From positions 1-54,274 of the forward strand of contig CAZUVE010000001.1 of the NCBI GenBank assembly GCA_964623735.1: a stretch of 54,274 nucleotides of DNA, in the 5' to 3' direction. The first letter of the stretch is position 1, and each line of letters starts with the position of its first letter. The notes below the pieces were generated by a model. The model was not told the origin of the DNA. It searched no databases and worked only from the letters and a program-made list of their open reading frames with translations. The position numbers and the translations under genes were made by a program. Below, one piece after another: positions 1,888 to 45,668 of this stretch. This stretch comes from an uncultured Halobacteriales archaeon. Lineage in GTDB: Archaea; Halobacteriota; Halobacteria; Halobacteriales; Haloarculaceae.

Positions 1888-1963
1888 GTGATTGCTGTAA
1901 GTCAGTGCCGGATCGACCGCACGACGGCGTACGGTCGGACCGGGAAACAGTCACAACAATCAC
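1888..1963 (+). repeat. family-B palindromic MITE-like repeat
   Basis: GTGATTGCTGTAAGTCAGTGCCGGATCGACCGCACGACGGCGTACGGTCGGACCGGGAAACAGTCACAACAATCAC. Termini are inverted, and the same unit recurs about a dozen times in the window. Confidence 0.8.
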
Positions 1964-2181
1964 GATATTTCTACTGTCGAACACCGCGATCTAGCGGCAA
2001 TCCTGAGATTGCTAGAACCAACACCTACTATAGTCGGGCACGACAACATAGGTAATGAAAAGGCAGGATCTACTTCGACTCTCTCTCTACAGGCGGGACA
2101 GGCCGAGTGCCTCGGGGCTTGTCCCCGAGGTACTTCACGTGTTTCGACCGGCCACTACTGGACTCGCTGAGTTCCTATCGG

Positions 2182-3246
2182 ATGACAAGAGGACATGCTC
2201 GAATGTGTAGCAAAAAAGAAGCAGAGGACCGAGAGACAGTGCCCCTTGAGGCGATTCCCGCGCCAGTCATTCACTACACTGTTCGTAACGGGACACCAGT
2301 TGTAAAAAACACTAACCAGGCGTTTGCGTCGGCGTTCCGGGGGTGTGAGTCGGGCACACCGGTTCGCCAGTGTTTGGCCACGTTCGACGTGTCCGGCGAC
2401 AGCACCGTCGACGAACTGTGTGCGACACTCGCTGCCGGCGAGCAGGTCGACGCAGAGCACCCCCGCTGCGACGACGAGACCGGCGCGGAACGGCAGGCGT
2501 ACCAGATTCGATCGCGTTCCTACGCGGCGACACACGGTCACGACGGCTGTCTCGTGGTGACGCCAGTCGAGTCGGATTCCGTCGACTCGGTCGACGTAGA
2601 CCAGATCGCGAGTGTCATTAGCCACGAACTCCGCAACCCGCTTGACGTTGCCAAGGCACACCTGCAAGCTGCCCGCGAACGGGGTGACGAGGAACACTTC
2701 GAACAGCTCGCAGACGCACACGACCGGATGGAACGGATCATTCAGGACGTCCTCACGCTGGCACGCAAGGAGAACGCCATCGCTCCGTCCCCGGGAGTCG
2801 AGCTCGGCTCAGTGGCCTCGGGTGCCTGGGACAGCGTCGAAACCGAGAGCGCGTCGCTGGTCGTGGACGACGACCTCCCCACGATCGAGGCCGACTCGAA
2901 CCGGTTGCAGCGGCTGTTCGAGAACCTGTTCCGGAACAGCGTCGAACACGCCCGGCCGGGCGGTGACGCGGACACGGGTGGTTCGGACGCCGACACACGA
3001 GTGACGGTCCGAGTCGGCACCACGGACGACAGCGGTTTCTTCGTGTCTGACAACGGCACTGGCATCCCTCCCGGGGAACGCGGCCGGGTCTTCGAGCCGG
3101 GGTACACGTCTGCCGAGACCGGCCTCGGACTCGGTCTCGCGATTGTCGAGCAGATTGCAGAGGCTCACGGATGGACCGCCTCCGTCACGTCCGGATCGGG
3201 CGGCGGTGCACGGTTCGAGTTTCGGGGACTCGACACTGCCGGGTAG
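2182..3246 (+). CDS. sensor histidine kinase (HisKA + HATPase_c)
   Basis: H-box SHELRNPL, N-box FRNSVEHA and G-boxes DNGTGIP / GLGLGLAIV. Start chosen at ATG 2182 inside ORF 2107..3246. Confidence 0.85.
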   Translation: MTRGHARMCSKKEAEDRETVPLEAIPAPVIHYTVRNGTPVVKNTNQAFASAFRGCESGTPVRQCLATFDVSGDSTVDELCATLAAGEQVDAEHPRCDDETGAERQAYQIRSRSYAATHGHDGCLVVTPVESDSVDSVDVDQIASVISHELRNPLDVAKAHLQAARERGDEEHFEQLADAHDRMERIIQDVLTLARKENAIAPSPGVELGSVASGAWDSVETESASLVVDDDLPTIEADSNRLQRLFENLFRNSVEHARPGGDADTGGSDADTRVTVRVGTTDDSGFFVSDNGTGIPPGERGRVFEPGYTSAETGLGLGLAIVEQIAEAHGWTASVTSGSGGGARFEFRGLDTAG

Positions 3247-3306
3247 CACAATTATAATGCGTCGGCCGTGGCTTTGTCTAGCCGGATCAGACAGTAGTGT
3301 TCCCGT

Positions 3307-4887
3307 ATGAACGATCACTTGCGACACGCTCCGATAGGAGTCATCGAAGTAACGCCGGCCGGGACCATCTCGGCGGCGAACCAGACCGCCGCCGAGACAC
3401 TCGACACACAGCGGGAGACACTCCGGGAGGTATCGATCGACGACGGATTTCCGGATTCGACTGCCGGAACCCTGTGTGACGCGTTTCGTGATGGTACGCC
3501 CGAGGAGCGATCGTTCGAGGAGTACTACCCGAGAATCGACCGCTGGCTCGGGGTCGACATCGTTCCGGGCGACGAGCAGGTGTTCGTGTACGTCCGTGAC
3601 AGAAGCTCGCGTCGCGAACAGCGACAGCGAATCGACCGGCTCGAACACCGTCTCGACCGGCTGGAGACGATCGACACGACGATGGCGACCGTCCTCCAGC
3701 AGGTGATCGACGCGTCGGCGCCCGAGGAGGTGTTACAGACGGTCTGCAACCGACTGGGACAGACAGATCTCTACGAATTCACCTGGGTCGGAGAGCGGGA
3801 TCTCACCGACGACACTCTGCAGGTCGTCGCTTCGGCGGGTGACGCACCAGAGATGCTCGAACGGATAGGCGAGTCGCTGACAGACGCTCGGCCACTCCCG
3901 GAACGGGAGGCCGTGACGGCCGGGGAGACACAGGTCGTCCAGCGCCTCGCCGAGGACGATTCGGTTCCCCGTCCCGTCCGCCTCGCCGGCTTCGGCCGCG
4001 GACTCCAGTCGTGCATCGCCATCCCGCTGGCCTACCGGAAGACCGTGTACGGCGTCCTCTGTGTGTACGCAGCCCGCGAGCACGGCTTCGAGGACCAGGA
4101 GCGCGCGAGTCTCGAGACGCTGGGCGCCATCGCCGGGTTCGCGATCAACGCTATCCGGCAGGAAGATCTGCTGTTCGCCGATACGGTGACGGAACTGACC
4201 GTCGAGATCCGGGATTCGACGGTGCCGTTCGTCGACGCAGCAGGAAGCGGTGGCTGCCAGTTGTTCCTGACTGGGGCGGTCCCACGGGACGACGATACCC
4301 TGGTTTGTTACGTACAGCCGGCAGACAGCGTCGGCGCGGTCACGCGCGCTCTCAGTGAGCACGACGCCGTTCTCGACGTGCGAACGGTTGGAGAGGACGC
4401 TGACGACGACACGGACACGGACTCACTGCTGGAAGTGACAGTGACCAGCGAGACGCCCGTCGCCACGTTCGCGGCGTGGGGCACGACGATTCTCACCGCG
4501 GAGTATCGTGACGGCGTGGCCCGGATCTCCGCACAGGTTTCCTCGGAGACTGACCTCCGACAGCTGGTGAGTGCTGTCGATACCGACGTGGCAGACACCG
4601 AGGTCGTGGCGAAACGGGAGACCGAACGCGAACCCGAGACGGTGGGTGCGTTCCAGGACACACTCGCGGACGAACTCACCGACAAACAGCGACGCGTCCT
4701 CAGGACGGCGTACCTCTCGGATTACTTTGCGTCGCCGCGGGGCAGTACGTCCGAGGAAGTGGCGGACGCTCTCGACGTGACCGGCCCGACCATCCTCTAT
4801 CACCTGCGGCGCGGACAGCGGAAACTGCTGGAGGCGTTTTTCGAGGCGAGTCAGGGGACGACCACGGTCGCTAGACAGCGGGACTGA
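3307..4887 (+). CDS. Bat-like transcription regulator (PAS/GAF + C-terminal HTH_10)
   Basis: Central GAF-like region. C-terminal LTDKQRRVLRTAYLSDYFASPR...TILYHLRRGQRKLL is the haloarchaeal HTH_10 signature. Confidence 0.85.
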   Translation: MNDHLRHAPIGVIEVTPAGTISAANQTAAETLDTQRETLREVSIDDGFPDSTAGTLCDAFRDGTPEERSFEEYYPRIDRWLGVDIVPGDEQVFVYVRDRSSRREQRQRIDRLEHRLDRLETIDTTMATVLQQVIDASAPEEVLQTVCNRLGQTDLYEFTWVGERDLTDDTLQVVASAGDAPEMLERIGESLTDARPLPEREAVTAGETQVVQRLAEDDSVPRPVRLAGFGRGLQSCIAIPLAYRKTVYGVLCVYAAREHGFEDQERASLETLGAIAGFAINAIRQEDLLFADTVTELTVEIRDSTVPFVDAAGSGGCQLFLTGAVPRDDDTLVCYVQPADSVGAVTRALSEHDAVLDVRTVGEDADDDTDTDSLLEVTVTSETPVATFAAWGTTILTAEYRDGVARISAQVSSETDLRQLVSAVDTDVADTEVVAKRETEREPETVGAFQDTLADELTDKQRRVLRTAYLSDYFASPRGSTSEEVADALDVTGPTILYHLRRGQRKLLEAFFEASQGTTTVARQRD

Positions 4888-4995
4888 TCGGCTGCTCGGG
4901 CGCGGTCGGCGGTGTCACGCTATCACCCGTCCCCTCGAGAGGAGACGCGACGCCCCGGAGTATCGAGATTCCCAACGGAGTTACAACCGACTCTA

Positions 4996-6329: not shown

Positions 6330-6393
6330 CCATCCCGTAGTGTTCGGGTGAGTGTAAAGAGGCTGTCGGATTACGTACCTGCCGACCGAGACA

Positions 6394-6464
6394 GATTGCT
6401 GTCACCGGGTTCCCGGTCCGATCGTACTGTCGCGCGGTCAGGCCGGCGATGACGTACAGCGATC
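6394..6464 (-). repeat. family-B repeat (diverged copy)
   Basis: GATTGCTGTCACCGGGTTCCCGGTCCGATCGTACTGTCGCGCGGTCAGGCCGGCGATGACGTACAGCGATC aligns to the B unit. Confidence 0.6.
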
Positions 6465-6512
6465 CGTGTGAGACTGTCGGCTGCACTCCAGCGAGAGTCG
6501 ACAGCGTGGCGG

Positions 6513-7086: not shown

Positions 7087-7244
7087 ATACTGTCGGCTAT
7101 ATAGTGATTGCTGTAACTGTGTACCGGTCTGACCGTACGCTGTCGTGCGGTCGATCCGGTAATGACTTACATCAATCACTATACCGACGTGAAGAGAGCC
7201 GCCACGGGGTGCGACAGTGCGCACGCGCGGAGAGCCGACAGTAT
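7087..7244 (+). repeat. family-A MITE-like repeat with a family-B copy (about 7103..7181) nested inside
   Basis: ATACTGTCGGCTATA | B unit | TACCGACGTGAAGAGAGCCGCCACGGGGTGCGACAGTGCGCACGCGCGGAGAGCCGACAGTAT. Confidence 0.8.
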
Positions 7245-9593: not shown

Positions 9594-9595
9594 TA

Positions 9596-9655
9596 CAGGA
9601 TCGACCGCAAGAAGGCATTCGGTCGACCTGATAAACGCTTTCGAACATCCCTATA
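9596..9655 (+). repeat. truncated family-C repeat (right two-thirds only), abutting the permease stop codon
   Basis: ACAGGATCGACCGCAAGAAGGCATTCGGTCGACCTGATAAACGCTTTCGAACATCCCTATA. The left terminal inverted repeat is missing. Confidence 0.7.
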
Positions 9656-9731
9656 CTGTCGGCTATACCGACGTGGAGATAGCCGCCACCTCGGGGTGCG
9701 ACAGTGCGCACACGCGGAGAGCCGACAGTAT
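9654..9731 (+). repeat. family-A repeat
   Basis: ATACTGTCGGCTATACCGACGTGGAGATAGCCGCCACCTCGGGGTGCGACAGTGCGCACACGCGGAGAGCCGACAGTAT. Confidence 0.8.
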
Positions 9732-9758
9732 ATATGAACGACCGCCGCATCCCCCGAC

Positions 9759-10796: not shown

Positions 10797-10868
10797 CACT
10801 GTCGGCTCTCCGCGCGTACGCACTGTCGTACCCCGGGGTGGCGAATACCACTACGAAGCCGTAAGTAA
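10797..10868 (-). repeat. family-A repeat, partial, reverse orientation
   Basis: ACACTGTCGGCTCTCCGCGCGTACGCACTGTCGTACCCCGGGGTGGCGAATACC.... The distal arm is degenerate. Confidence 0.6.
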
Positions 10869-11654: not shown

Positions 11655-11734
11655 ATACTCCCGGCTGTAAGTCTTTGAAGAATTTCGCCACCCCGGGGTG
11701 GCGAATCTCTTTTCTCAGTTACAGCCGACAGTAT
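11655..11734 (+). repeat. family-A variant (A') repeat
   Basis: ATACTCCCGGCTGTAAGTCTTTGAAGAATTTCGCCACCCCGGGGTGGCGAATCTCTTTTCTCAGTTACAGCCGACAGTAT. A solitary arm CTACAGCCGACAGTGT follows at 11791..11806. Confidence 0.75.
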
Positions 11735-11911
11735 CACTTCCGGATCCCGCACTTTGCCACGAGCCAGATGGGTCGAATCGCTCGTCCCAGCTACAGCCGA
11801 CAGTGTCAGCGCCAGACCCGGGCCGGACCGCCAACCGAACCGGTCCGACAACAGCGGTGGCCCGCCGACCCTCGGTCACGGTACGACGCTGTCCGGATCT
11901 CTCGCTGGCGC

Positions 11912-12026
11912 TATACACCCGGAGGTGACGCTGTCAGGTGCCACGACACCTGATCAGTGAGTTCAGCCCGCGATACTCCGAGTTTGTGACCGGCGGAGTT
12001 GAGCGAATCACCTCCGGGTGGACATC
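11912..12026 (+). repeat. family-D repeat (~115 bp)
   Basis: TATACACCCGGAGGTGA...TCACCTCCGGGTGGACATC with 13-bp inverted termini. There are four near-identical copies in the window. Confidence 0.8.
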
Positions 12027-12786: not shown

Positions 12787-12916
12787 TACTGCCGGCTCTC
12801 CGCGCGTGAGCACTGTCGGCACCCCGGGGTACCGGATGTACTGATTGCTGTAAGTCACTGCCGGATCGACCGCACGACAGCGTACGGTCGTACCGGTACA
12901 CAGGTACAGCAATCAG
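12786..12916. repeat. partial family-A repeat (12786..12838) joined to a family-B repeat (12841..12916)
   Basis: (TG)ATACTGCCGGCTCTCCGCGCGTGAGCACTGTCGGCACCCCGGGGTACC..., then CTGATTGCTGTAAGTCACTGCCGGATCGACCGCACGACAGCGTACGGTCGTACCGGTACACAGGTACAGCAATCAG. The A arm overlaps the nth stop codon by 1 nt. Confidence 0.7.
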
Positions 12917-13039
12917 TATGACAGGGTCGGTTGTAGCTGTTTGCTGTCGGATCCAGCACAGAACGACAGCAGTCCGTACCGGGGCGTTCCTCCCTCGGTA
13001 CACGCAAACTGTTTCACGTCTACGGCATAATGTATCGGC

Positions 13040-13162
13040 ATGGACGACATCGACCCCGATACAGTGATGATCGCCGCCGGCGTCGTACTCAGTCTGATCG
13101 CCGTCCTGGAGTTCTACCCGGCCTGGAAGAACGCGCGAAAGCCGTCAGCTACCGACGACTAA
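13040..13162 (+). CDS. possible 40-aa single-helix membrane peptide
   Basis: Hand translation gives MDDIDPDTVMIAAGVVLSLIAVLEFYPAWKNARKPSATDD*. The codon bias is good, but it is very short. Confidence 0.3.
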   Translation: MDDIDPDTVMIAAGVVLSLIAVLEFYPAWKNARKPSATDD

Positions 13163-13435
13163 TACTGTCGGCTGTAACTGAAAAAAGAGATTCGCCACCC
13201 CGGGGTGGGGGCATATACACCCGGAGGTGACGCTGTCAGGTGCCACGACACCAGATCAGTGAGTTCAGCCCGCGATACTCCGAGTTTGTGACCGGCGGAG
13301 TCGAGCGACTCACCTCCGGGTGGACATCTTCACGTCGGGATATAGGGATGTTCGAAAGTCATTACAGGATCGACCGCAAGAAGGCGTGCGGTCGACCTGG
13401 TAAACGCTTTCGAACATCCCTATAGCCGGCAGTAT
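13162..13435 (+). repeat. composite: family-A' repeat carrying nested family-D (13214..13328) and family-C (13341..13424) copies
   Basis: AATACTGTCGGCTGTAACTG...CCACCCCGGGGTGG | D unit | CTTCACGTCGGGA | C unit | GCCGGCAGTAT. The right end overlaps the stop codon of the oxygenase gene by 1 nt. Confidence 0.8.
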
Positions 13436-14922: not shown

Positions 14923-14997
14923 ACCCGTACCGAAGGGAGCGAGGAATAAATCATACTGGCTCGAGACATCGCACACCCACGGACGGACGCCCCGATA

Positions 14998-15067
14998 CAG
15001 AGTGCCGTACGTCAGTTCCGGATCGACCACACGCAGTCGTTCGTACCGGGACACAGTTACAGCAATC
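14998..15067 (+). repeat. family-B repeat (diverged)
   Basis: CAGAGTGCCGTACGTCAGTTCCGGATCGACCACACGCAGTCGTTCGTACCGGGACACAGTTACAGCAATC. Confidence 0.65.
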
Positions 15068-15264
15068 CGTCTTCGCACGGCTGGTCTACCGGGCCCGACT
15101 CCGGAGAGTGGCCCTGCGGCACGCTCTATACCTGTCGTATCGTTTTTCGGGCCGGTCACCCGTGTCTGGTGATCGGTCCCGTAGAGAACGACAACGGTCC
15201 GCACATTCCGGGAGGACAGTCGCATTTCGAACCTATTTTACTCGACAGCGCTGTACCCTCACAC

Positions 15265-15608: not shown

Positions 15609-15692
15609 TATAGGGATGTTCGAAAGCGTTCACCAGGTCGACCGTACGCCTTCTTGCGGTCGATCCTGTAATGACTTTCGAACATCCCTATA
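15609..15692 (-). repeat. family-C repeat (84 bp, 18-bp perfect inverted termini)
   Basis: TATAGGGATGTTCGAAAG...CTTTCGAACATCCCTATA, flanked by TA on both sides. Confidence 0.85.
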
Positions 15693-15852
15693 GTCTCCGG
15701 AGAACGAACGACCGCGTCCCGGCACACACGCGGCGCAACGTCCCCGGTCACAGAATCAGCCGGGTTCCGGTTCTGTTGAGTCACGTGAAACGCCGCCACG
15801 CCGGACCCGACCAGCACGAACGTCTCGGCCAGCCCACCGCCAGAGAACACGA

Positions 15853-16004
15853 CACTGGTCGTCAGTTCCGGATTGCCGACGACAGTGTGCGGTCGTACCG
15901 GGGGACAGTCACAGCACTCCGTATCATACTGTCGGCTATAAGCGCGTGAGCACTGTCGGCACCCCGGGTGGGGAATATCTTCACGTCGGTATAGCCGACA
16001 GTAT
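15853..16004. repeat. family-B (15853..15923) followed by family-A (15926..16004)
   Basis: The A copy is ATACTGTCGGCTATAAGCGCGTGAGCACTGTCGGCACCCCGGGTGGGGAATATCTTCACGTCGGTATAGCCGACAGTAT. Its end touches the stop codon of gene 16004..16879. Confidence 0.8.
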
Positions 16005-17987: not shown

Positions 17988-18186
17988 GATATCCACCCGG
18001 ACGTAATTCGCTCGACTCCGCCGGTCACAAACTCGGAGTATCGCGGGCTGAACTCACTGATCTGGTGTTGTGGCACCTGGCAGCGTCACCTCCGGGTGTA
18101 TAGGGTCGGTTGCAAGCCATTTTCCGATCAACCGCACGACAGTGTGCGGCCTACGGGGACACAGGCACCGGCAAACAGTCACACTA
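17988..18186 (-). repeat. family-D repeat (17988..18102) plus adjoining B-like unit (18103..18186)
   Basis: Near-identical to 18676..18876. Together the two form a ~200-bp direct repeat. Confidence 0.8.
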
Positions 18187-18675: not shown

Positions 18676-18876
18676 ATATCCACCCGGACGTGATTCGCTC
18701 AACTCCGCCGGTCACAAACTCGGAGTATCGCGGCTGAACTCACTGATCTGGTGTCGTGGCACCTGGCAGCGTCACCTCCGGGTGTATAGGGTCGGTTGTA
18801 AGCCATTTCCGGTACGACCGCACCGCAGTTGTGCAGTTGTATCGGTACACAGGGACAGCAACCCGTACAGTATAGG
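18676..18876 (-). repeat. family-D repeat (18676..18788) plus adjoining B-like unit (18789..18876)
   Basis: Second copy of the D + B-like composite. Confidence 0.8.
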
Positions 18877-19149: not shown

Positions 19150-19226
19150 TCCTGTCGGCTATAACTATTTGAAGATATTCCCCACCCGGGGTGCCGACAG
19201 TGCTCACGCGCTTATAGCCGACAGTA
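19150..19226 (+). repeat. family-A repeat, directly after the stop codon of 18910..19149
   Basis: TCCTGTCGGCTATAACTATTTGAAGATATTCCCCACCCGGGGTGCCGACAGTGCTCACGCGCTTATAGCCGACAGTA. Confidence 0.8.
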
Positions 19227-20519: not shown

Positions 20520-21400
20520 CGGGTAGTGCAGCGGCGTCGTCAAGATCCTCACAAACGTCCTCATCGACCTGGTCCGGACTGACCTGCCTACCCGCGACCC
20601 CCCGGCCGCCCAGGGCAGGAGAAACCTTGGCCGGCCTTGTGCGGCCGCGGTTTCCCCGCCGGGAGAGACCTGATCCCCCACTTGGGGATGGACCTGGGGG
20701 GCGGACCTGACGCGCGCGTCAAGCCTGACCTCGGGTCTGCGCGCCCGCGGTGACACCTCGCACGAATCGTAACGTCGGAGGTATCATTCCGGTCTGCAGA
20801 ACGCGAGGATTCCCTACGAGGTGGGGGTGTGGACTTCCTCATCATCGATGAGAGTGCATCGGTGCCGGAACGTGCTTGGACAGAGGAACTCCACCCAACG
20901 CTGTCCGATTCCCAGGGCAAGATGATTGCCATCGGCACACCTAAGAGCCGAAACTGGTTCCATCGCTGGTTCAAACGTGGCCAGTCCACCGATTATACTG
21001 GTCGACGGAGTCCCTGATAGATATTCGCCGGGTCGTGACGCGGCGAATTGTCTCAACCGTTCCGTCGACCAGTATACCCCGAGGTTACGAGCTTCCAGGC
21101 CCCTACATATCAGAATCCGCATATCGCCGACTCGGAGATTGATTCCGCCCGCGACGACATGCCGGACCGTGTATTTGAACAGGAGTATCTGGCGAAGTTC
21201 GTCGATGATGCCAGTGGCGTCTTCCGGAACGTTCGTGAGCGGAATGTCGAGTCGTATACCCTGTCCGTGAGTGCCGCCGAGAGTACTGGTCCCTATTCAA
21301 TCGGTGTCGACTTCGCCCGGGTGGAAGGCACGCTGGATTCGCGTCGGTGGTTAGCTGCGCTATTCGGGTTCAGAGGAGTTCGACACTCTCTCCCCTGAGA
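20520..21400 (+). pseudogene. phage terminase large subunit, multiply frameshifted and truncated
   Basis: The fragments are ALCGRGFPAGR (decayed Walker A), VSFRSAEREDSLRGGGVDFLIIDESASVP (Walker B), MIAIGTPKSRNWFHRWF, then in another frame FQAPTYQNPHI...FEQEYLAKFVDDASGVF...YSIGVDFAR. Confidence 0.65.
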
Positions 21401-21636: not shown

Positions 21637-21716
21637 ATACTGTCGGTTATAACTACGTGAAGATATTCTGCACCCCGGAGTGCCGACAGTGCTCACGCGC
21701 TTATAGCCGACAGTAT
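21637..21716 (+). repeat. family-A repeat
   Basis: ATACTGTCGGTTATAACTACGTGAAGATATTCTGCACCCCGGAGTGCCGACAGTGCTCACGCGCTTATAGCCGACAGTAT. Confidence 0.85.
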
Positions 21717-27224: not shown

Positions 27225-27305
27225 TCCGCCCCGCCGGACGTCACCACCTGAGGGTCGCCGTCCGGACCCGTGGCAGCGGTCGCCAGCAGCATCGGCACAG
27301 GAACT

Positions 27306-28058: not shown

Positions 28059-28612
28059 CCACCTGTAGCTGTGGCACCGAACAGAAGGAAGTCGACCGCG
28101 AGAGCACGGTGCGACAGTACGTCGACCGGTTCAGTTTCTCGGACCTCTCGCTGAACAAGAAGACCGAGGTAAAGAACCCGTTCCGTCCGAGCGCGCTCTA
28201 CGAACTGGCTACAGCGCCGAATGCCCGGGCGGACATCGAGGGTCCCAGCCTCGAAATAGAGCGCTCCGAGGACACCTTCTGCCCGAACTTCGCCGAGCAT
28301 CAGGAGGCGTACGACCGACTCGTCGCCCAGGCGGAACTGATCGAGGCCGCGACCCAGAATGTACCCGCCGCGGAGGTCGAGACCGCAGTCGACGTCGAGA
28401 TGGTCCGCTCGAAGATCGAGCACCTCCCCTCGCAGGTGCCCAACCTCTCAGAGGCAGAGCTCGAACAGCTCCAAGACGAGCTGACCGCTATGCAGGCGTC
28501 GCTGTCGGGGCGGCTCGAACAACTCGAGGGCAGCCAACCGGCGACGCTCCGGGAGTCGCTCGGCGGGTCTAACCGAGCCCAGCGACTGATACTGTCGGCT
28601 ATAACTTCGTGA
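28055..28612 (+). CDS. module-1 ORF of the interrupted gene (terminates in MITE-derived ILSAITS*)
   Basis: TTCSCGTEQKEVDRESTVRQY...EDTFCPNFAEHQEAYDRLV...VDVEMVRSKIEHLPSQV...LTAMQASL...NRAQRL, followed by MITE sequence. Confidence 0.6.
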   Translation: MTTCSCGTEQKEVDRESTVRQYVDRFSFSDLSLNKKTEVKNPFRPSALYELATAPNARADIEGPSLEIERSEDTFCPNFAEHQEAYDRLVAQAELIEAATQNVPAAEVETAVDVEMVRSKIEHLPSQVPNLSEAELEQLQDELTAMQASLSGRLEQLEGSQPATLRESLGGSNRAQRLILSAITS

Positions 28613-28668
28613 AGATATTCGCCACCCCGGGGTGCCGACAGTGCTCACGCGCTTATAGCCGACAGTAT
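28589..28668 (+). mobile_element. family-A MITE-like insertion inside the coding sequence
   Basis: AT-ACTGTCGGCTATAACTTCGTGAAGATATTCGCCACCCCGGGGTGCCGACAGTGCTCACGCGCTTATAGCCGACAGT-AT. 28589..28666 is 78 nt (26 codons) with one in-frame TGA at 28610. Confidence 0.85.
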
Positions 28669-29452
28669 GAACAATCTGCAAGAGCAGACACAACGGATCC
28701 TGGACAACCATATCGCCGAGGAGATCGATCTCCGCCAGCAACAGGCCCGGCAGGACGCTCCCGCCAGTCCAGCGGAAGACACCGCACCGGATGGTTCGAA
28801 AGAACAGGTCGACGAGCAACCGACGGCGTCGCCGGCAGAACCGCCGCCGTGTGACACGTGTGGGCGGGAGGAGGTCCGCGTCGAGCGCCAGACCACGGTC
28901 CGACAGGTCCAGTCGGATCTGGAGTTCCGAAAGCTCAGTTTCGCAGGGTCGGTCACCCCCGGACTGTTCGACAACGAGGGGTCGCTTGACCCGAGTCTGG
29001 ATGGCGGCCCGAGCGTCGAGACGACCGCGACACTCAAGGGCAACGAGGACACGTTCTGCGGGAACTTCGCGGGTGACGAAGACGCCTACGAGGCACTCGT
29101 CCACGATATAAAGGCGACCGACAGGCTCGCCGACCGATACGGGCCGGGGGAGCATCTCGAGGACAACATCGACATCGAGATGCTCCGGTCGAAGGTCGAG
29201 CATCTCCGGACGCAGGTGCGAGACCTCTCGACCGAGAAGCTGACTACGCTCAAAGAAGAACTCACAGCGATGCAGGAGTCAGTGGCCGCCCGGGTCGGGG
29301 ACCTCCGGACCAATCAGCGGTGGGCGAAGCTCCGTGACGACCTCGGGGTCTCGTCGCGCATCCAGCGGCTCCGAGACCTGCAGACCCAGGCCCAGAAGTT
29401 CGTGGACAACCACATCACCACTGAACTCATACTGTCGGCTATAACTACGTGA
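28667..29452 (+). CDS. module-2 ORF of the interrupted gene
   Basis: The ATG lies at the MITE/flank junction. Sequence is PPCDTCGREEVRVERQTTVRQV...EDTFCGNFAGDEDAYEALV...IDIEMLRSKVEHLRTQV...LTAMQESV...SRIQRL...NHITTEL, followed by MITE-derived ILSAITT*. Confidence 0.6.
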   Translation: MNNLQEQTQRILDNHIAEEIDLRQQQARQDAPASPAEDTAPDGSKEQVDEQPTASPAEPPPCDTCGREEVRVERQTTVRQVQSDLEFRKLSFAGSVTPGLFDNEGSLDPSLDGGPSVETTATLKGNEDTFCGNFAGDEDAYEALVHDIKATDRLADRYGPGEHLEDNIDIEMLRSKVEHLRTQVRDLSTEKLTTLKEELTAMQESVAARVGDLRTNQRWAKLRDDLGVSSRIQRLRDLQTQAQKFVDNHITTELILSAITT

Positions 29453-29508
29453 AGATATTCCCCAGTCCGGGGTGTCGATACTGCTCACGCGCTTATAGCC
29501 GACAGTAT
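29429..29508 (+). mobile_element. family-A MITE-like insertion inside the coding sequence
   Basis: AT-ACTGTCGGCTATAACTACGTGAAGATATTCCCCAGTCCGGGGTGTCGATACTGCTCACGCGCTTATAGCCGACAGT-AT, with an in-frame TGA at 29450. Confidence 0.85.
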
Positions 29509-29698
29509 CAGCGAGCGCCAGCAGCAGGCACAGCGAGCCCCCGGCGATCAACGACCCGGCCAGGGCGGCACCGACCCCGAGACTAGCCCCACGGCAGTTC
29601 CCGATGAGACCGAACCGGGCCAGCAGGCCCAAGCCAGTCCGGACGCGACCGGGAAAACGGACCAGTCGCCGACCGACTGCGAGCGCTGCGAGGAGGAG

Positions 29699-30805: not shown

Positions 30806-30963
30806 GCAGTCGTATGCTCCTGCCGACGAGAAGCGCCGGGAGTCCGTCACTATGACGCGTCGTTGTTCCCGCCGCCGGTCCGTCACCACCGACTGTGGAT
30901 GCCACACTCGGAGGTGGCCAGAGCCGCTACGACGACACAACAGCGTGGTCGTTCCGATACGGG

Positions 30964-32511: not shown

Positions 32512-32593
32512 CAAGATAATACACAGCGGCAGCCACATTAAATCTTGACACCGCGCTGACGTTGCCGAACATCTTATTTTCGTCGCCTTCACA
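32512..32593. promoter_or_regulatory. 82-bp divergent intergenic region of the two Hsp70 genes
   Basis: Relatively AT-rich (TTAAAT, CTTATTTT as TATA-box candidates). A 7-bp inverted repeat TCAAGAT(32511-17)/ATCTTGA(32542-48) is present. Confidence 0.4.
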
Positions 32594-34671: not shown

Positions 34672-34750
34672 ATACTGTCGGCTATAAGCGCGTGAGCACT
34701 GTCGGCACCCCGGGTGGAGAATATCTTCACGTACTTATAGCCGACAGTAT
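34672..34750 (-). repeat. family-A repeat (reverse orientation)
   Basis: ATACTGTCGGCTATAAGCGCGTGAGCACTGTCGGCACCCCGGGTGGAGAATATCTTCACGTACTTATAGCCGACAGTAT. Confidence 0.85.
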
Positions 34751-35370: not shown

Positions 35371-35449
35371 TAGTGATTGCTGTACCTGTGTACCGGTACG
35401 ACCGTACGCTGTCGTGCGGTGGATCCGGCACTGACTTACAGCAGTTACT
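35371..35449 (-). repeat. family-B repeat, ending at the start codon of the next gene
   Basis: TAGTGATTGCTGTACCTGTGTACCGGTACGACCGTACGCTGTCGTGCGGTGGATCCGGCACTGACTTACAGCAGTTACTA. Confidence 0.8.
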
Positions 35450-35857
35450 ATGACCCCGGCAGTCACGGACTGTCCGGACTGTGGGGGTGGGACGCTCCCG
35501 TTCCCGGTCCCCGCGGAGTACCAGTCGCTGTTGCCCGGCGAGGACCCGGGCGCGGTGCTGTGCCGGCGGTGTCTGTCGCTGTACCCGGACCCGGACCCGC
35601 CCGGGGAGCCCCCGGAGTTCCGGCGCGTCAGCGACGCGTTCCCGACGAACCCGGACGCGGCCGTCCCGATGGCGCTGGCGGTCGGCCTGCTCGACAGTCT
35701 CGCGCTGTACCGCTCGGAGATTGGCGACCTGCTCGCGGCTGCCGAGCGCGCCGGAACCGACCCGCTGCTGGTTCTCGACCGGCTGGCCCGCGACCCGGAA
35801 CTCGATCCCGCAACCGACCTCGCCGGCCGCCGCCACCAGCTCGAACAGCTCCTCTGA
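35450..35857 (+). CDS. conserved hypothetical protein with N-terminal zinc ribbon
   Basis: CPDC...CRRC pairs followed by a helical C-terminal domain. Codon bias is good. Confidence 0.65.
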   Translation: MTPAVTDCPDCGGGTLPFPVPAEYQSLLPGEDPGAVLCRRCLSLYPDPDPPGEPPEFRRVSDAFPTNPDAAVPMALAVGLLDSLALYRSEIGDLLAAAERAGTDPLLVLDRLARDPELDPATDLAGRRHQLEQLL

Positions 35858-35875
35858 TACGGACTGCTGTAAGTC

Positions 35876-36030
35876 ATACTGTCGGCTATACCGACGTGAA
35901 GATATTCCCCACCCGGGGTGCCGACAGTGCTCACGCGCTTATAACCGACAGTATGAGTGGTGTACCTGTGTCCCGGGACGACCGTACGCTGTCGTGCGGT
36001 GGATCCGGCAGTGACTTACAGCCGGCAGCA
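35876..36030. repeat. family-A repeat (35876..35954) followed by family-B repeat (35955..36030); a solitary B terminus (CTGCTGTAAGTCA) precedes at 35863..35875
   Basis: ATACTGTCGGCTATACCGACGTGAAGATATTCCCCACCCGGGGTGCCGACAGTGCTCACGCGCTTATAACCGACAGTAT followed by ...GTACCTGTGTCCCGGGACGACCGTACGCTGTCGTGCGGTGGATCCGGCAGTGACTTACAGCC. Confidence 0.75.
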
Positions 36031-36301
36031 TCAGGCCACGCTCGATCGTGTGCCAAACTGGTTAGGTACACGTATTTTCCCCTCGAGAGGAGAACCGTGA
36101 GGTGCGGCATCGGCGGAACGATGCCGTGCGACGCTCAGCCACGAGTTGTCGTCTTGCAAGTTACCGTCTCTCCCGAGCCGGTTTCACCGACCCCCGACTA
36201 CATCCCCCCACTCCACCCCACCCCTTCTGTGCTCGCCGTGCGACGGCTCCCAGCCCCAAGTCCGGTGGCTGTTCGTCTGGTTGTCGGAGGCCAGCGGCCG
36301 T

Positions 36302-37546
36302 TTAGACGTTTGTCGCGTACCGCAGGAGACCGGCGACGCCGCCGAAGGCGGTGAGGAGCTGTTCGCCCTTCTCGAAGTCGGTCGAGACGAAGATCGTCTC
36401 GGTGCCGCGCTGGCCGGCAATCTCCATCAGGTGATCGATGGCGTCGTCGCGTTCGCCCCCGGTGACGTCCTCGCCACACCGCGAACAGGTGTGGGTCGGC
36501 GTCTCCGCGCTGCTGTTGACGAGTTCGCGCTCCTCGTGGCCGTCGGTACACCCGTAGGTGACGACGTCCTTGCGGAGGTCCTCGCTTATCAGGAGACGGT
36601 CGACCGATCCCATCACGAGGTTCTCGCGGGTCGCCTCGAACCCGTAGGTCGCGAGGTCTCCGTCGTGGAGTTCCTGGAAGAACTCCTCCATGACCTGCTT
36701 GTCCTCCAGAATTTCGCGTTCGGCCAGCACCTCGCCGGCAGCGTCGACGAGGTCGTACAGCCCCGACTCGTCGGTGTACGAGACGTCGAACTTCCCGAGC
36801 ACGAGGTCTCGGAGTTCGTGGTGGAGGTAGTCGCCGTCGAGGAACTCGTCTTTGGTCGGCGAGGGTCCACCCACGAGCACCCCGTCGAGGTTGTGGCGCT
36901 CGGGGACGAACAGGTCGTTTGCCATCCCGGCGACTTCCTGGTAGAAGTTGTCGATGGCCTCGAGACGGAGGCGAGCGAAGCGCTGTGCGGACTGGCCGCC
37001 CTTGCGCTGTTTGCCCGGGACGAGCGAGGTCGCGGACTTGACGGGATCGACCCGTTTGCCCCGGAGCCACCCGACGTTGGCCTCCCGCCGGTCGAGGACG
37101 ACCAGCCCGAACAGGCCCTTGTCGGCCAACATCTCCGCCAGGGGGTCGGTCAGGAACGCCGAGTCGCAGTGGTAGCGGAACGACTGGACCGGCTCGGGCG
37201 GGTTCTCGAGGACACGTGTTACCATCTCGGTCTGTCCGCCGCCGGCGTCGACTGCCCCCGAGAAGAGGACCATCCCGTTCTCGGGCGGGGTGTCGTAGTA
37301 CTTGAGGCGGTCCTTGATGCTCTTGAGGGCGTCCTGGACGTTCGTGCGGGTGTCCTTGGACTTGATGTTGCTCGCCTCGGAGTGTTCCTGTGTGATGTGT
37401 CCGACGACGTCGCTGACCTGGCGGTCGGGGGGCACGTAGATGGTGACGAGTTGTGTTCCCGACCCGCGGTAGCCTCTGAGTTCCTCGATGAGTTTCCTGA
37501 ACTCGTATTTCTGTCTGTCAGTCTGCTCGGCCTCGACCTCGCTCAT
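36302..37546 (-). CDS. prf1: peptide chain release factor aRF1
   Basis: NIKS motif (EASNIKSKDTR), GGQ motif (KGGQSAQRF) and a YxCxxxF-like RYHCDSAF. 414 aa from MSEVEAEQ. Confidence 0.95.
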   Translation of the reverse strand: MSEVEAEQTDRQKYEFRKLIEELRGYRGSGTQLVTIYVPPDRQVSDVVGHITQEHSEASNIKSKDTRTNVQDALKSIKDRLKYYDTPPENGMVLFSGAVDAGGGQTEMVTRVLENPPEPVQSFRYHCDSAFLTDPLAEMLADKGLFGLVVLDRREANVGWLRGKRVDPVKSATSLVPGKQRKGGQSAQRFARLRLEAIDNFYQEVAGMANDLFVPERHNLDGVLVGGPSPTKDEFLDGDYLHHELRDLVLGKFDVSYTDESGLYDLVDAAGEVLAEREILEDKQVMEEFFQELHDGDLATYGFEATRENLVMGSVDRLLISEDLRKDVVTYGCTDGHEERELVNSSAETPTHTCSRCGEDVTGGERDDAIDHLMEIAGQRGTETIFVSTDFEKGEQLLTAFGGVAGLLRYATNV

Positions 37547-37596
37547 CGGTAGACACTTGGCGAGAACGGCGTATGAATGTGTTGACCGGGCTCCGG

Positions 37597-39351
37597 TCAC
37601 ATCGACTCGGGGGCGGCGACACCCAGCGCGTCGAGGGCGTTCGCGATTGCGTTCCGGGCCGCCACGACGACAGCAAGGCGCGCCTGCCGCGTCTCGCCGC
37701 CGGCGTCGAGGACTGGACACTCCCGGTAGAAGGCGTTGAACGCCTCGGCGAACGCCCGGGTGTAGGTGGCGACGACGTGGGGCCGGAGGTCCTCGGCGGC
37801 CTCCGCTATGGCCGCCGGGAACCGCGCGACGACCCGCACTAACTCGCGTGCTTCCGGCCGCTCGAGCGCCGCGGCGTCGGCTTCGGCCGGGGGGACCTCC
37901 TTGCCGGCCGCCCGCGCCTCCTCGAGGATGCCACACGCACGGGCGTGGGTGTACTGGACGTACGGGGCGCTCTGTGCTTCGAAGTCGAGGGCGTCCTCCC
38001 ACTCGAAGGTGATCGCCTTCGAGGGCTGCTTGGCGACGATGTCGTAGCGGACCGCGCCGACCCCGACCTGGCGGGCGATCCGCTCGACGTCGGCGTCGGC
38101 CAGGTCGTCGTCGCGGATCCGGTCGCCGATCCGGTTCTCGACCTCCCCGCGGGCCCGCTCGACGGCCTCGTCCAGCAACTCGTCGAGGTCGATCCCCGTC
38201 CCCTCGCGGGTGCTCATCCCGCCCTCGGGGAGGTTTACCCACGAGTAGTGGACTGTCCGGAGGCAGTCGGTGTCGTGGCCCAGCGACTCGAGAGCCGACC
38301 GCAACTGCTCGGCCTGGAGCTTGTGGTCCTCGCCGAGGACGGTCACGGCGCGGTCGAAGTTCGCGAACTTCCACTCGTGGTGAGCCAGGTCGCGGGTCGT
38401 ATAGAGGGAGGTGCCGTCGGCCCGCAGGAAGACGAGATTCTTGTCGATGTCCTCGAACTCGAGTTGCCAGGCGCCATCCTCGTAGACCGTGGCCCCGAGG
38501 TCCTGCAGGCGGTCGACGACGTCGTCGGTCGAGCCGTCGCGCACGAAGCGGGTTTCCTTGACGAACTCGTCGAACTCCGCGGGCAACCGCCCGAGGGTCG
38601 CGCGCATCCCCGCCAGCACTGCGTCGACGACCTCGCTCACCCGCTTGTAGACCGCCTCGTCGCCGTTCTCGAGCCCGCGCAGGATGGCGCCGATCTCCTC
38701 CTCGGCTGCCTCGACGTCCGCAGGGTCGCCCTCCTCCAGGTACGCGTTCCCCTTGCGGTAGTACCGCACGAGGTCGTACTCCGGGGAGTCCCGCTCCGGT
38801 TCGGGGAGGTCCGACTCGTCGAAGGTCTCGTAGGCCCAGGTGAACACGGCGATCTGGCGGCCGGCGTCGTTGACGTAGTAGTGACGCTCCACGTCGTGGC
38901 CCGCGTAGTCGAGTACGCGCGCGAGGGCGTCGCCGATGATGGGGTTGCGAGCGCGCCCGACGTGGATGGGACCGGTCGGGTTGGCGCTCGTGTGCTCGAC
39001 GACGACGCTCGTCCCTGTCGGGTCCAGCGTCCCGTAGTCGTCGGCCTGTGCGGCCCCGAGGGTGTCGTCGATGTACCGCTCGCCCGCGAGGAAGTTCACG
39101 TACGGCCCCCGGGTTTCGACGTCGACGACGTACTCGCAGTCCCCGACGTCGAAGGCCTCCGCCACCTGCCCGGCGACGGCTGGGGGCGCGGCCTCCGCCT
39201 CGCTTGCGAGTCGGAAGGCGACGCTCGAGGCCAGCACCGCCTCGACGTCCTCGGGCGGGCGCTCGAGACCGAGGTCGTCGGCCGGGTACCCGACTTCCGC
39301 CAGAGCCCGTCCCAGACCGTTCTCGACCTCTGCGCGCAGTGCCAGGAACAT
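37597..39351 (-). CDS. argS: arginine--tRNA ligase
   Basis: [17 protein letters not shown] (HIGH-type) and MSTREG (KMSKS-like). The C-terminal anticodon-binding domain ends ...APESM. Confidence 0.95.
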
Positions 39352-39721
39352 ACTCCCGTTTTACTAGCGGGGGGCTTAGGGGTAACGGGTTCGGCTCCCC
39401 GGCCCCCTCGGGGCCGCTGTAGCCCCTCTCCGGGTCGGTTGCCCGACGTCTGCTGACTGGTCCTGTGACGATGGCCCCTGTCGTGTCCCTGTCTCCCCGG
39501 ACAGTCTCACTACCTGTTCGAACCCTGTCGTGCAGTCGCCCGACACAGTTACACAGTCCGCACGAACGGTGTGGCCGGGAGTGTGCGGCACGTCGTGGCG
39601 CCGGATACACGTACACGCTCGGGGGAGAAAACCCATCCAGTGCTCTTTCAGAGCCAGAAACTACAGCGCGAGACACGCCCTCGCGTTCCAGGATTGTCCG
39701 GGGATGGGAGTCACACTGATA

Positions 39722-39792
39722 CTGATTGCTGTGGGTTGCCGGATCCACCGCACGACAGCGTACGGTCGGGCCGGGAAACAGTCACAGACACT
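39722..39792 (+). repeat. family-B repeat
   Basis: CTGATTGCTGTGGGTTGCCGGATCCACCGCACGACAGCGTACGGTCGGGCCGGGAAACAGTCACAGACACTG. Confidence 0.7.
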
Positions 39793-40149
39793 GTGACTGG
39801 TGTGCCTGTGTCGGCGGCCGCGTCCGGCCGTCCCGACGGGACAGACACGGGCTGTCACTTCTCTCTGTCACCAGCCGTGTCCTACACGCCTGTGCCGGCG
39901 ATGGTTCCAATATCCGCCACGAGGACGCGCCCTCTACACCCACCCCACTCTCGTGTCGGCCACGGGGACGGCCCCCCGTGATTTCCGGTCTGGCCCTGCA
40001 GGAGCCGTCGGGACAATGGGTTGATACTATTAAATCCTTTGTGGCCGAGAACGTGCGATGAGTCCGAGCGACTCCGGCGGGCCCCCGAAACCAGGATGAC
40101 AGTCCCCCGACGCGTCGGGAGCGTCGGTGCCAGTCGAGTGCGCTGATAC

Positions 40150-40220
40150 GGATCGTTGTACGCCAGTGCCGGATCGACCGTACGACAGCGTGTGGGCTAC
40201 CGGGACACGGTTCCAGTAAT
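40150..40220 (+). repeat. family-B repeat (diverged)
   Basis: GATCGTTGTACGCCAGTGCCGGATCGACCGTACGACAGCGTGTGGGCTACCGGGACACGGTTCCAGTAATC. Confidence 0.65.
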
Positions 40221-45666: not shown

Positions 45667-45668
45667 GG

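Follow-up and report, generated by a model that had tools for sequence, protein, structure and literature searches.

The non-coding DNA of a 54,274-nucleotide segment of a haloarchaeal chromosome (the whole stretch analysed, hereafter the window) contains 35 repeat matches, together ~2.7 kb, that are most probably genuine non-autonomous MITEs mobilised in trans. This reading, already put forward in the first-pass annotation, follows from their defined ends, target duplications, insertion in random orientation, spread over genomes and genera, the presence of identical copies at many loci and the differing content of orthologous spacers. All matches are in non-coding DNA before position 40,300 (Table 1) and chance explains none of them: the A terminus TACTGTCGGCTATA, with up to two mismatches, occurs 22 times in the window against 0.05 expected. 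The families are new, previously unannotated MITEs, although the kind itself is already known.

The four families first described (A to D) are all present where they had been placed, but their lengths and number change. Family A, first given as ~80 bp, is a 78-nt unit with exact ends, TACTGTCGGCTATAAC...GTTATAGCCGACAGTA; the window has nine complete copies (the eight compared all differ), two split by nested insertions and four fragments. Families B (previously ~72-78 bp; about 14 matches, two of them weak) and C (previously 84 bp; two complete copies and one truncated) have the common core reported before and an 80-nt unit with exact ends, TA-S-K-G ... C-M-S-TA. C is a subfamily of B and the two form one superfamily; A, B and C have the terminus signature TA-S-K-G ... 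Y-T-R-T-A in common. Family D (114 nt, close to the ~115 bp first estimated) has 13-nt terminal repeats and a non-palindromic interior; it stands apart as a classical MITE and, as far as seen, occurs in the source lineage only. Two of its four copies are joined to a B-like element at an identical junction. A fifth family, E, had been missed and was first recognised in this analysis (20996-21074); a second copy is present in L013, and the family reaches ~115x unique depth in metagenome X1. Every element starts and ends with TA.

Table 1. Repeat copies in the window
Element	Position	Strand	Context and flanks	Evidence
Family B, 80 nt	1886..1965	+	between Usp and histidine-kinase genes	nhmmer E=1.5e-22, alignment
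Degenerate family A fragment	4934..4991	-	directly past Bat-type regulator gene	nhmmer E=1.2e-6
Diverged family B	6390..6468	-		nhmmer E=2e-10
Family A split by nested B	7088..7243	+	halves 7088-7101, 7182-7243; outer flanks TGA, TCA	sequence, solo termini
Family B nested in A	7102..7181	-	TA of A's CTATAC as target, TA duplicated	nhmmer E=2.6e-23
Family C, 5'-truncated	9594..9653	+	starts directly past permease stop codon; abuts A at 9654	alignment, nhmmer
Family A, 77 nt	9654..9730	+		alignment, flanks, nhmmer
Family A, one arm degenerate	10797..10866	-	directly 3' of AI-2E transporter stop TGA (10794-10796)	nhmmer
Family A, symmetric variant	11656..11733	-	TCA/TCA duplication	nhmmer
Family A right-arm fragment	11774..11819	+		A terminus match
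Family D, 114 nt	11912..12025	+		nhmmer E=5e-41, alignment
Family A, truncated by B at 12839	12787..12840	-	TNA 12784-12786 = TGA stop of HhH-GPD glycosylase gene	nhmmer
Family B, 80 nt	12839..12918	+		nhmmer E=1.2e-23
Family A variant with nested D and C	13163..13434	+	outer flanks TAA, TCA	sequence, termini
Family D nested in A	13214..13327	+		alignment, sequence, nhmmer
Family C nested in A	13343..13422	+	TA either side	sequence, nhmmer
Family B	14996..15071	+	in N-terminal extension of RPE65-type ORF	nhmmer
Family C	15611..15690	-	TA either side	nhmmer
Family B, degenerate 5' arm	15846..15923	+	abuts TCA duplication of A at 15927	nhmmer
Family A	15927..16003	-	TCA/TCA duplication	nhmmer
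Family D joined to B-like copy	17989..18102	-		alignment, nhmmer
B-like copy adjoining D	18101..18182	+	terminus TAGGGTCGGTTG	nhmmer
Family D, second D + B-like composite	18676..18788	-		alignment, nhmmer
B-like copy adjoining D	18787..18867	+		nhmmer
Family A	19150..19226	+	upstream of A-type ATPase subunit D gene	nhmmer
Family E, 79-nt hairpin TACTGGTCGACGGAG...CTCCGTCGACCAGTA	20996..21074	+	A-like centre, TA either side	sequence, metagenome depth, L013 copy
Family A	21638..21715	+	TCA/TCA	nhmmer
Family A	28590..28667	+	between tandem paralogous genes, TGA/TGA	nhmmer
Family A	29430..29507	+	between tandem paralogous genes, TCA/TCA	nhmmer
Family A	34673..34749	-	TGA/TGA	nhmmer
Family B	35371..35450	-	TGA/TGA	nhmmer
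Composite	35857..36031	.	B left-arm fragment 35857-35876, A 35877-35953 (flanks TCA, TGA), B 35955-36031	nhmmer
Family B, degenerate 3' arm	39720..39789	+		nhmmer
Family B	40147..40225	+	start of Tyw1-like ORF, flanks TGA, CGA	nhmmer

The elements insert into one another, and the sequence bears out both nests outlined before (there 7087..7244 and 13162..13435, here 7088-7243 and 13163-13434), the B insertion at 7102 being read by comparison with the uninterrupted A variant at 9654. The B copy at 14996 is probably upstream of the real RPE65-type start, since the extension that contains it has no Pfam match and lies beyond the stretch aligned with L029. The uneven density remarked on earlier was also recovered (33 matches lie in the first 36.1 kb, one each at 39.7 kb and 40.1 kb, and none past 40.3 kb), mostly because of the non-coding space available, which is 24-33% of 1-40.3 kb versus 6.6% of 40.3-54.3 kb. 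To call the intergenic DNA saturated, as was done then, is too strong, as MITEs make up 21-29% of the non-coding DNA in the part of the chromosome carrying repeats, although the spacers 9594-9758, 12787-13434 and 15611-16003 are repeat over most or nearly all of their length.

Beyond the window, the elements are widespread among haloarchaea: scanning genomes recovered over 105 stretches from 12 or more of them, and unannotated plasmid copies are present in Haloarcula, Halomicrobium, Haloferax, Halobellus, Haloplanus, Natrinema, Natribaculum, Halococcus and Halapricum; no viral copies were found. Identical copies reveal lineage-specific bursts: they account for 20 of the 37 copies of Halobellus salinus and for 15 of the 21 of a single MAG. 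One orthologous spacer measures 150 bp without elements in L029 and ~650 bp with 4-5 elements in the window, and the L029 site orthologous to the A copy at 12787 is a single TGA without an element. The source population yielded no allele with an empty site.

Aligning many copies gave sharp ends and a target-site feature: on insertion, A and B/C truly duplicate a 3-bp target, TNA, as a direct repeat, and the triplet is usually TGA or TCA. Identical triplets flank 115 of 137 A copies (TGA 58, TCA 46, TTA 7, TAA 4) and inverted-identical triplets only three, within a genome scan that fixed an A before TACTG and a T after CAGTA, which imposes one base per flank and limits what is inferable about variation of the A terminus. 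Among 45 independent B/C copies, chosen by the core alone, 33 have identical TNA flanks and none has inverted-identical flanks. Of the 20 sequence-identical Halobellus salinus copies, read in element orientation, 10 have TGA on both sides and 10 have TCA, which shows that the triplet is derived from the target and is not part of the element. Insertion occurs in either orientation at random, and about a quarter of the A copies (34/137) exactly occupy a stop codon, which the duplication regenerates; tolerated TNA sites would be expected to yield about this share. TA flanks are a minority, seen in C-type copies (as first described), one nested B copy and family E; since TA is its own reverse complement and these copies are few, a TA duplication is indistinguishable there from part of the terminal repeat.

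The TNA duplication favours an IS5/PIF-Harbinger-like enzyme over an IS630/Tc1 type. The enzyme would be a DDE-type transposase that cuts T(N)A with a stagger of 3 nt or, at times, 2 nt; its best fit, tentatively, is the IS5 superfamily (IS1031/ISL2/IS427-type). The IS1031, ISL2 and IS427 groups are relatives of PIF/Harbinger, the movers of Tourist MITEs, and their terminal repeats are known to begin with GG or GAG and not known to begin with TA; the single IS5-like element inspected has ends unrelated to the MITE ends. An IS630/Tc1/Zator-like enzyme is the next-best fit and an unlikely one; otherwise, the enzyme would be one not yet linked to such ends. The 50 window ORFs scanned against Pfam include no transposase, in agreement with the first-pass annotation. 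The autonomous partner with matching ends that it had envisaged was found neither in the window nor among genomic and plasmid loci totalling 0.86 Mb or metagenome contigs totalling 0.77 Mb, and the transposase family is therefore judged from the duplication alone.

It is improbable that all families are Stowaway-like MITEs moved by a TA-targeting IS630/Tc1-mariner-type transposase, the mechanism first suggested by the C flanks. The xTA-element-TAx arrangement at C copies, the nested B at 7102 and family E fits it, as do the TA at both ends of every element, the link of an 80-bp archaeal MITE, Sulfolobus SM1, to an IS630-family element, and the 3-bp duplications given by the Zator branch of the superfamily. 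However, the variable middle base matches directly in A and B/C (115/137 and 33/45, with three and zero inverted), a pure TA duplication would need an implausible direct-repeat target, TSA-TA-TSA, and none of the loci examined showed an IS630-like gene.

Full-length hairpins are stable (z = -4.5 to -9.9), and both-sided changes occur in 18 of 37 pairs of the A stem and 12 of 16 pairs of the B/C terminal helix; for most measures the observed value is matched or exceeded by only 0-1 of 500 shuffles, and slid controls are all far lower. The two arms thus evolve in concert, so that the whole unit stays a hairpin. The covariation proposed as a check on the B/C hairpin is strong in the arms, and the B/C apical core (GGATCGACCGCA-N10-CGGTCG) varies less than the termini. 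MITEs do not usually combine a conserved centre with variable ends. Positions 1, 2, 5 and 10-14 and the apical core would be the likely enzyme contacts, and the remaining stem could be kept complementary by hairpin selection or by arm-to-arm correction during palindrome extrusion.

Stable hairpins with compensatory stem changes and a conserved apical core would also be expected of units that are primarily functional (RNA hairpins, terminators or stabilisers, or protein-binding DNA sites) and under selection, with mobility secondary or past; G-U pairs at fixed positions in A, retention across genera and frequent placement right at gene ends point the same way. We nevertheless consider this quite improbable, given that no Rfam family matches the elements, that orientation shows no bias with respect to the upstream gene (15 sense, 19 antisense, p = 0.61), that orthologous spacers differ in copy content, that nesting and bursts of identical copies are how selfish elements behave, and that stop-codon placement is near that given by tolerated TNA sites. 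The exapted RNA or protein-binding elements offered earlier as an alternative found no backing in the Rfam and orientation results; covariation would still allow a structural role.

Transposition by Y1 enzymes does not duplicate the target, and it places the element beside a fixed short sequence in a single orientation. REP/BIME-like or PATE-like palindromes moved by a RAYT or IS200/IS605-type Y1 transposase via single-stranded hairpins would account for palindromic, intergenic, high-copy elements whose hairpin is maintained by covariation, and haloarchaea commonly carry IS200/IS605 genes (one pair was seen in L110). Yet the elements have true duplications with a variable middle base, both orientations, full terminal inverted repeats and units of 78-80 rather than 20-40 nt; the duplication data largely refute this origin, to which we give very little weight. 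Local duplication confined to the window region, which two D copies in like D + B-like composites 686 bp apart might suggest, is refuted for A, B, C and E, the A, B/C and E elements being present in other genomes, and has next to no probability overall, since in the source metagenomes the repeat bins of all families, including D, stand at 16-735x unique depth and have a wide variety of flanks.

The elements resemble the Tourist MITEs of the IS5 superfamily in being small and non-coding, with terminal inverted repeats and a 3-bp TNA (TWA) duplication; the ISL2 and IS427 groups duplicate 2-3 or 2-4 bp, a range that matches the minority TA flanks. They differ in their ends (TA-S-K-G versus GG or GAG), in the whole-unit hairpin with a centre more conserved than the ends, and in that the partner element was not found. 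The Sulfolobus SM1 MITE (79-80 bp), compared by its description, is likewise archaeal, similar in size and ends at a TA-containing target; unlike the elements here, it is crenarchaeal, with a 2-bp (TA) duplication and a known partner, the IS630-family ISC1048. The Correia elements of Neisseria (CREE/NEMIS), which duplicate TA, are also orphan hairpin MITEs at high copy near genes, but are bacterial and longer (roughly 100-150 bp). When the TA flank is included, family B (TATAGTGATTGCTG...CCGGTACG) resembles the start of the published Correia repeat, TATAGTGGATTAA...CCGGTACGG (PMC5039591). This likeness of sequence, over ~11 bases, may be due to chance and is a lead only.

Closer in host are the SMR-A and SMR-B elements (e.g. 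the 80-bp HqIRS41) and MITEs of Haloquadratum walsbyi, which are 80-110 bp long, have prominent terminal inverted repeats that resemble no known transposon, far outnumber transposons, lack a known mobilising enzyme and are often inserted in other mobile elements (PMC3119063). These features and the haloarchaeal host are shared with the elements here. The SMRs are described as lacking a target duplication, and SMR-A as targeting IS605-type palindromes (PMC3119063); by these descriptions alone, the TNA duplications and mutual nesting set the elements here apart. Finally, a census of prokaryotic MITEs lists Halobacteriales/Haloarculaceae genomes with as many as 251 MITEs each (about 100 per Mb), without family description, target site or structure (PMC11602168), and these MITE-rich genomes are the kind that carries families A and B.

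Repeat finding and profile searches returned 35 repeat matches in the window, amounting to ~2.7 kb and all located before position 40,300. The four MITE-like families that the first-pass annotation had described were all recovered at their places, as were its two nests: a complete B interrupts one A copy behind GGCTA-TA, with TA repeated on the far side, and an A variant houses D followed by C (see table). The unit lengths (78 nt for A, 80 nt for B and C, 79 nt for E and 114 nt for D) are MITE-like and too short for any gene, and the ends are sharp, as in MITEs, in an alignment of 137 A and ~100 B/C copies. The 14-nt A terminus, with up to 2 mismatches, occurs 22 times (0.05 expected from shuffles), and D has 13-nt terminal repeats around a non-palindromic interior. 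The core proposed to be shared by B and C takes the form GGATCGACCGCA-N10-CGGTCG; the two also have the 80-nt length and the first five bases in common and, by sequence, belong as subfamilies to a single superfamily in which many further terminus variants occur. A variant of A, TACTGTCGGCTGTAAG, found also on Haloferax and Haloarcula plasmids, is identical to TAGTGATTGCTGTAAG of B at positions 1, 2, 5 and 10-14, and a terminus signature is common to A and B. Family E, missed on first pass, is a hairpin present once in the window (ends TACTGGTCGACGGAG) and once as a relative in another MAG (L013); its A-like centre joins it to A. D stands apart from the other families.

Positions of repeat elements and other features in the window and in related loci
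Feature	Sequence	Positions	Strand	Remark
A copy split by B	window	7088-7243		
A copies at a gene's TGA stop	window	begin at 10797 and 12787		
A variant holding D and C	window	13163-13434		
D + B-like composites	window	17986-18143; 18673-18829		686 bp apart, 91-95% identity
Low-G+C stretch	window	20250-22080		55% G+C, lowest in window
Family E copy	window	20996-21074		79 nt
Mildly raised metagenome depth	window	21312-21379; 21482-21549		within low-G+C stretch
HEAT/DnaJ/Hsp70-like gene cluster	window	22085-34180		
ORFs without Pfam match	window	27270-30805		within gene cluster
1148-aa ORF	window	36302-39748	-	high-G+C artefact
eRF1 gene	window	36302-37552	-	last 416 codons of 1148-aa ORF
Arginyl-tRNA synthetase gene	window	37597-39351	-	another frame
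tRNA-Leu (anticodon TAA)	window	49639-49725		sole Rfam or ARAGORN match
C/B chimera	L077	1865-1944		80 nt
B/C-type element inside another	L144	6601-6772; 8191-8362		1590 bp apart, 95% identity
B/C-type element inside another	L204	~985		
Longer A-ended element	L106 (Haloferax mediterranei pHM100)	4001-4111		
Longer A-ended element	L109 (Haloarcula sp. JP-L23)	3501-3610		TCA duplication

Composite and chimeric elements were also seen. The two D + B-like composites of the window have an identical junction and differing outer flanks on the D side; they either moved as a unit or were duplicated locally. The element in the related locus L077 joins a left arm of C type (TAGGGATGTTCGAAAG) to a right arm of B type (...ACAGTAATCACTA), which suggests recombination between subfamilies. 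In the loci L144 and L204, one B/C-type element lies inside another at TGA, and the two nested pairs of L144 bracket a 491-aa ORF without a clear Pfam match, with which they may form a composite unit. The longer A-ended elements of 107-108 nt have unrelated interiors, and the copy in Haloarcula sp. JP-L23 appears to interrupt an ORF.

In the aligned A copies of the window, the middle base of the T-A flanking triplet agrees as a direct, not an inverted, repeat. A scan of one genome per species with both termini exact gave more than 105 stretches among the matches listed, and these loci together with the window form a sample of 137 A copies; the length is exactly 78 nt in 115. With one base per flank imposed by the scan pattern (A before TACTG and T after CAGTA) and the two remaining flank positions per side free, the matching middle base included, the two flanking triplets agree in 115 of the 137 (TGA 58, TCA 46, TTA 7, TAA 4) and are arranged as an inverted repeat in only 3. 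When copies are oriented by their asymmetric interior, TGA and TCA are equally frequent, and twenty sequence-identical copies in Halobellus salinus divide 10 and 10 between the two. The triplet therefore derives from the target, and is a genuine 3-bp TNA duplication made by insertion in random orientation. For B/C, a metagenome scan keyed on the core alone, with unconstrained flanks, yielded 59 genuine 80-nt elements; the core pattern is loose, and many chance matches in soil and marine contigs were removed by profile. Identical TNA flanks are found in 33 of the best 45 of these 59 copies (TCA 17, TGA 15, TAA 1) and inverted-identical flanks in none. A and B/C have in this respect the fixed-length target-site duplication of MITEs, and on the same counts (115/137 and 33/45) a duplication of TA only is rejected for A and B. 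A minority is flanked by xTA and TAx, which suggests a 2-bp duplication: every C-type copy, the B nested in A and the two E copies. Since TA is its own reverse complement and these copies are so few, such a duplication is indistinguishable from part of the terminal repeat, and the same holds for the palindromic AT that adjoins D.

Repeat bases in the window fall essentially all outside curated genes. Two A copies use the upstream gene's TGA stop codon as their TNA and begin directly behind it, and for 34 of the 137 sampled copies the site is precisely a gene-like ORF's stop codon, whereas such stops make up only 3.2% of all TGA/TCA triplets. Assuming a non-coding share of ~15% and loss of intragenic insertions, stop codons are estimated to provide ~18% of the tolerated TGA/TCA sites; the observed 25% is close to this value, and special targeting of stop codons is rejected. 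We read the occupancy as tolerance, not targeting, because the duplication restores the stop. A strand-specific function at gene ends is rejected, given the random orientation of the copies relative to the gene (15 sense, 19 antisense, p=0.61). The density contrast along the window noted on first pass is real. The first 40.3 kb are unusually rich in non-coding DNA (24-33%, depending on the treatment of uncertain ORFs), of which repeats occupy 21-29%; the last 14 kb hold zero copies and only 6.6% non-coding DNA, so the contrast largely reflects room. The spacer between the glycosylase and RPE65-type genes measures 150 bp without any element in the related MAG vs ~650 bp with four or five elements here. 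No empty-site alleles were seen in the source metagenomes.

The repeats are not confined to this region, as local duplications would be. In Halobellus salinus, 272 kb of sampled sequence contain at least 37 copies of A, which also occurs in two Halobacteriales MAGs and, among the matches listed, in one or few copies in Halapricum, Halorhabdus, Haloplanus, Natronomonas and other MAGs. BLAST against plasmids detected relatives of A on replicons of Haloarcula hispanica, Halomicrobium, Halobellus ramosii and Haloplanus, relatives of B on those of Haloarcula marismortui, Halococcus, Natrinema, Natribaculum and Halapricum, and none of D. Almost every full-length haloarchaeal plasmid match is without a listed feature, in a plasmid feature table that is incomplete, and one lies under a universal stress protein CDS. 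Relative to the unique baseline (~15 in run X1), depth in the source metagenomes is ~130-fold for an A segment, 430-fold for B, 735-fold for the B/C core and 16-70-fold for D, and E reaches ~115 times unique sequence in X1; many contigs in the source metagenomes carry differing flanks around the repeats. These depths and flanks indicate that all families are dispersed. Every lineage carries a subfamily of its own, with recent bursts of identical A copies in some (20 of 37 in Halobellus salinus, 15 of 21 in one MAG); the eight complete A copies of the window all differ from one another. Viral contigs yielded neither A nor B copies.

All families fold into long hairpins, their z-scores ranging between -4.5 (D) and -9.9. 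Among 66 distinct A copies, both-sided changes occur in 18 of the 37 pairs of the full palindrome; none of 500 shuffles reaches the observed value for four of five covariation measures, and the fifth, a count of further pair types, does not exceed the shuffles, 434 of which attain it. Pairing in A is 81% and falls to 32-45% when the partner is slid by 1-3 columns. The covariation analysis proposed for the B/C core gave, in 41 copies, 89% pairing and compensatory change in 12 of 16 terminal pairs around a nearly invariant apical core; this pattern comes partly from sampling, with termini fixed for A and the core fixed for the metagenome B/C set, and an earlier profile-based B/C set gives the same picture. 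The covarying pairs show that the arms evolve in concert, either because the hairpin is selected or because arm mismatches are corrected when the palindrome extrudes. The centre is better conserved than the ends, which is not typical of MITEs. None of the repeats matches a curated RNA family in Rfam 15 at gathering score.

The enzyme that moves these elements was sought by several routes. As had been stated on first pass, none of the 50 ORFs scanned in the window encodes a transposase (Pfam). The search suggested there for an autonomous partner with the same ends came up empty in the window and in ~1.6 Mb of related loci: wherever ends with identical TNA flanks lie 300-5000 bp apart, they belong to two separate MITEs around ordinary host genes (e.g., an AAA ATPase, CcdA/thioredoxin or a PCMT methyltransferase). 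All-against-all BLAST of 0.86 Mb of loci from MITE-rich genomes detected no multi-copy element longer than 300 bp, tblastn with four haloarchaeal transposases retrieved only IS4, IS5 and IS605 remnants, and browsing the annotation of haloarchaeal plasmids gave nothing. The one intact IS5-like element inspected, on a Halobellus ramosii plasmid (L110), has unrelated ends (GGAGCGTGTCATAGAAA).

The reading of these repeats as MITEs is upheld by their short length, lack of coding capacity, sharp ends, TNA duplication and many dispersed copies. They move in trans by DNA transposition of cut-and-paste or copy type, with a 3-nt stagger at TNA. The IS630/Tc1-like mechanism suggested by the first-pass annotation is not the best fit, as A and B/C duplicate TNA and TA flanks are limited to C, E and one B copy. 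Duplication of 3 bp at TNA, in some cases of 2 bp, is the characteristic mark of the IS1031, ISL2 and IS427 groups within the IS5 family and likewise of the eukaryotic PIF/Harbinger elements, from which Tourist MITEs derive, whereas IS630/Tc1-mariner elements duplicate TA and their Zator relatives give 3 bp. The 3-bp TNA/TWA duplication of the IS5 superfamily and PIF/Harbinger (Tourist-like) is the one found here, and not the TA target with 2-bp duplication of IS630/Tc1-mariner (Stowaway-like). Given what is established about the duplications of IS families, we put an IS5-like enzyme at a little under an even chance and consider an IS630/Zator-like one unlikely; an enzyme not linked to these ends takes the remaining probability.

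The setting of the repeats is that of an ordinary haloarchaeal chromosome. The window has a G+C of 62-70%, and its long ORFs encode acidic proteins. Pfam matches include Usp, a histidine kinase, a Bat-type regulator, a HalX response regulator, an amino-acid permease, UvdE endonuclease, A-type ATPase subunit D, HEAT-repeat, DnaJ-like and Hsp70-like proteins, eRF1, arginyl-tRNA synthetase, a Tyw1-like enzyme, cyclophilin, a Dpp-type ABC transporter, thymidylate kinase and TenA. Four sediment metagenomes contain 95-96% of the window's sampled words, and the closest genome among species representatives is the uncultured Halobacteriales MAG SRP185896_co2_171, with which three syntenic gene segments are common (80-88% nucleotide identity).

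Several other features of the window were observed. In the gene cluster in its middle, two genes code for HEAT-repeat proteins and one each for a DnaJ-domain protein and an acidic repeat protein; two Hsp70-like genes are placed divergently, and the cluster looks like a non-canonical chaperone-type module. Three of its ORFs without Pfam match share a 45-nt motif (76-82% alike, ~780-bp spacing) and look like tandem paralogues. The low-G+C stretch contains no gene-like ORF and no Pfam match, with families E and A inside. At the third codon position, gene-like ORFs have a G+C of 0.72-0.86 in the MITE-rich part (1-36000) vs 0.85-0.93 in 37000-54274, and the two parts may have different histories. 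Only the eRF1 portion of the 1148-aa ORF is a gene; the remainder overlaps the arginyl-tRNA synthetase gene.

In short-read assemblies each copy of these repeats, which here account for a fifth or more of non-coding DNA, causes a break. With exact ends and the TNA target known, they can be annotated cleanly, improving assembly and binning of hypersaline metagenomes, and their insertion sites can be used as strain markers. They provide an example of a MITE living harmlessly on stop codons and a clear case of concerted hairpin-arm evolution around a conserved centre. For specialists, the three features of note are the TNA target with its stop-codon occupancy, the concerted arms around a conserved core, and the missing transposase; which enzyme moves the elements is a concrete question, approachable in genetically tractable haloarchaea.

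MITEs are already known as a kind, and a census from 2024 found Halobacteriales MAGs to contain as many as 251 unnamed MITEs each (PMC11602168), among which elements like these were probably tallied without description. The elements are unannotated in the public records inspected, including plasmids of Haloarcula hispanica, Haloarcula marismortui and Haloferax mediterranei, and searching the literature for their sequence strings returned nothing relevant. Read with its TA flank (TATAGTGATTGCTG...CCGGTACG), B resembles the Correia repeat of Neisseria, which begins TATAGTGGATTAA...CCGGTACGG (PMC5039591); this likeness of the ends is a lead and may be due to chance. A wider reading, which we regard as a long shot, is that A, B, C and E would form one orphan superfamily of hairpin-dependent mobile elements throughout Halobacteria, recognised by the hairpin, a few fixed positions and the apical core instead of a conventional terminal repeat. 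Such elements would be moved by a transposase not yet recognised as such, perhaps single-copy or domesticated, as RAYTs serve REPs, and possibly related to the mover of the equally orphan Correia elements, whose ends look similar. Identity with REP/BIME (RAYT) or IS200/IS605-derived PATE elements, which make no duplication and have a fixed flanking tetra- or pentanucleotide and subterminal palindromes, is contradicted by the true duplications, variable middle base and both orientations seen here. The closest haloarchaeal category is that of the small mobile repeats of Haloquadratum, elements of 80-110 bp that nest in other elements and have prominent terminal repeats unrelated to any transposon and no known mobiliser (PMC3119063). 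By description, the size and apparent orphan status of A and B fit this category; the Haloquadratum repeats, however, are reported without target duplication, whereas A and B/C duplicate TNA.
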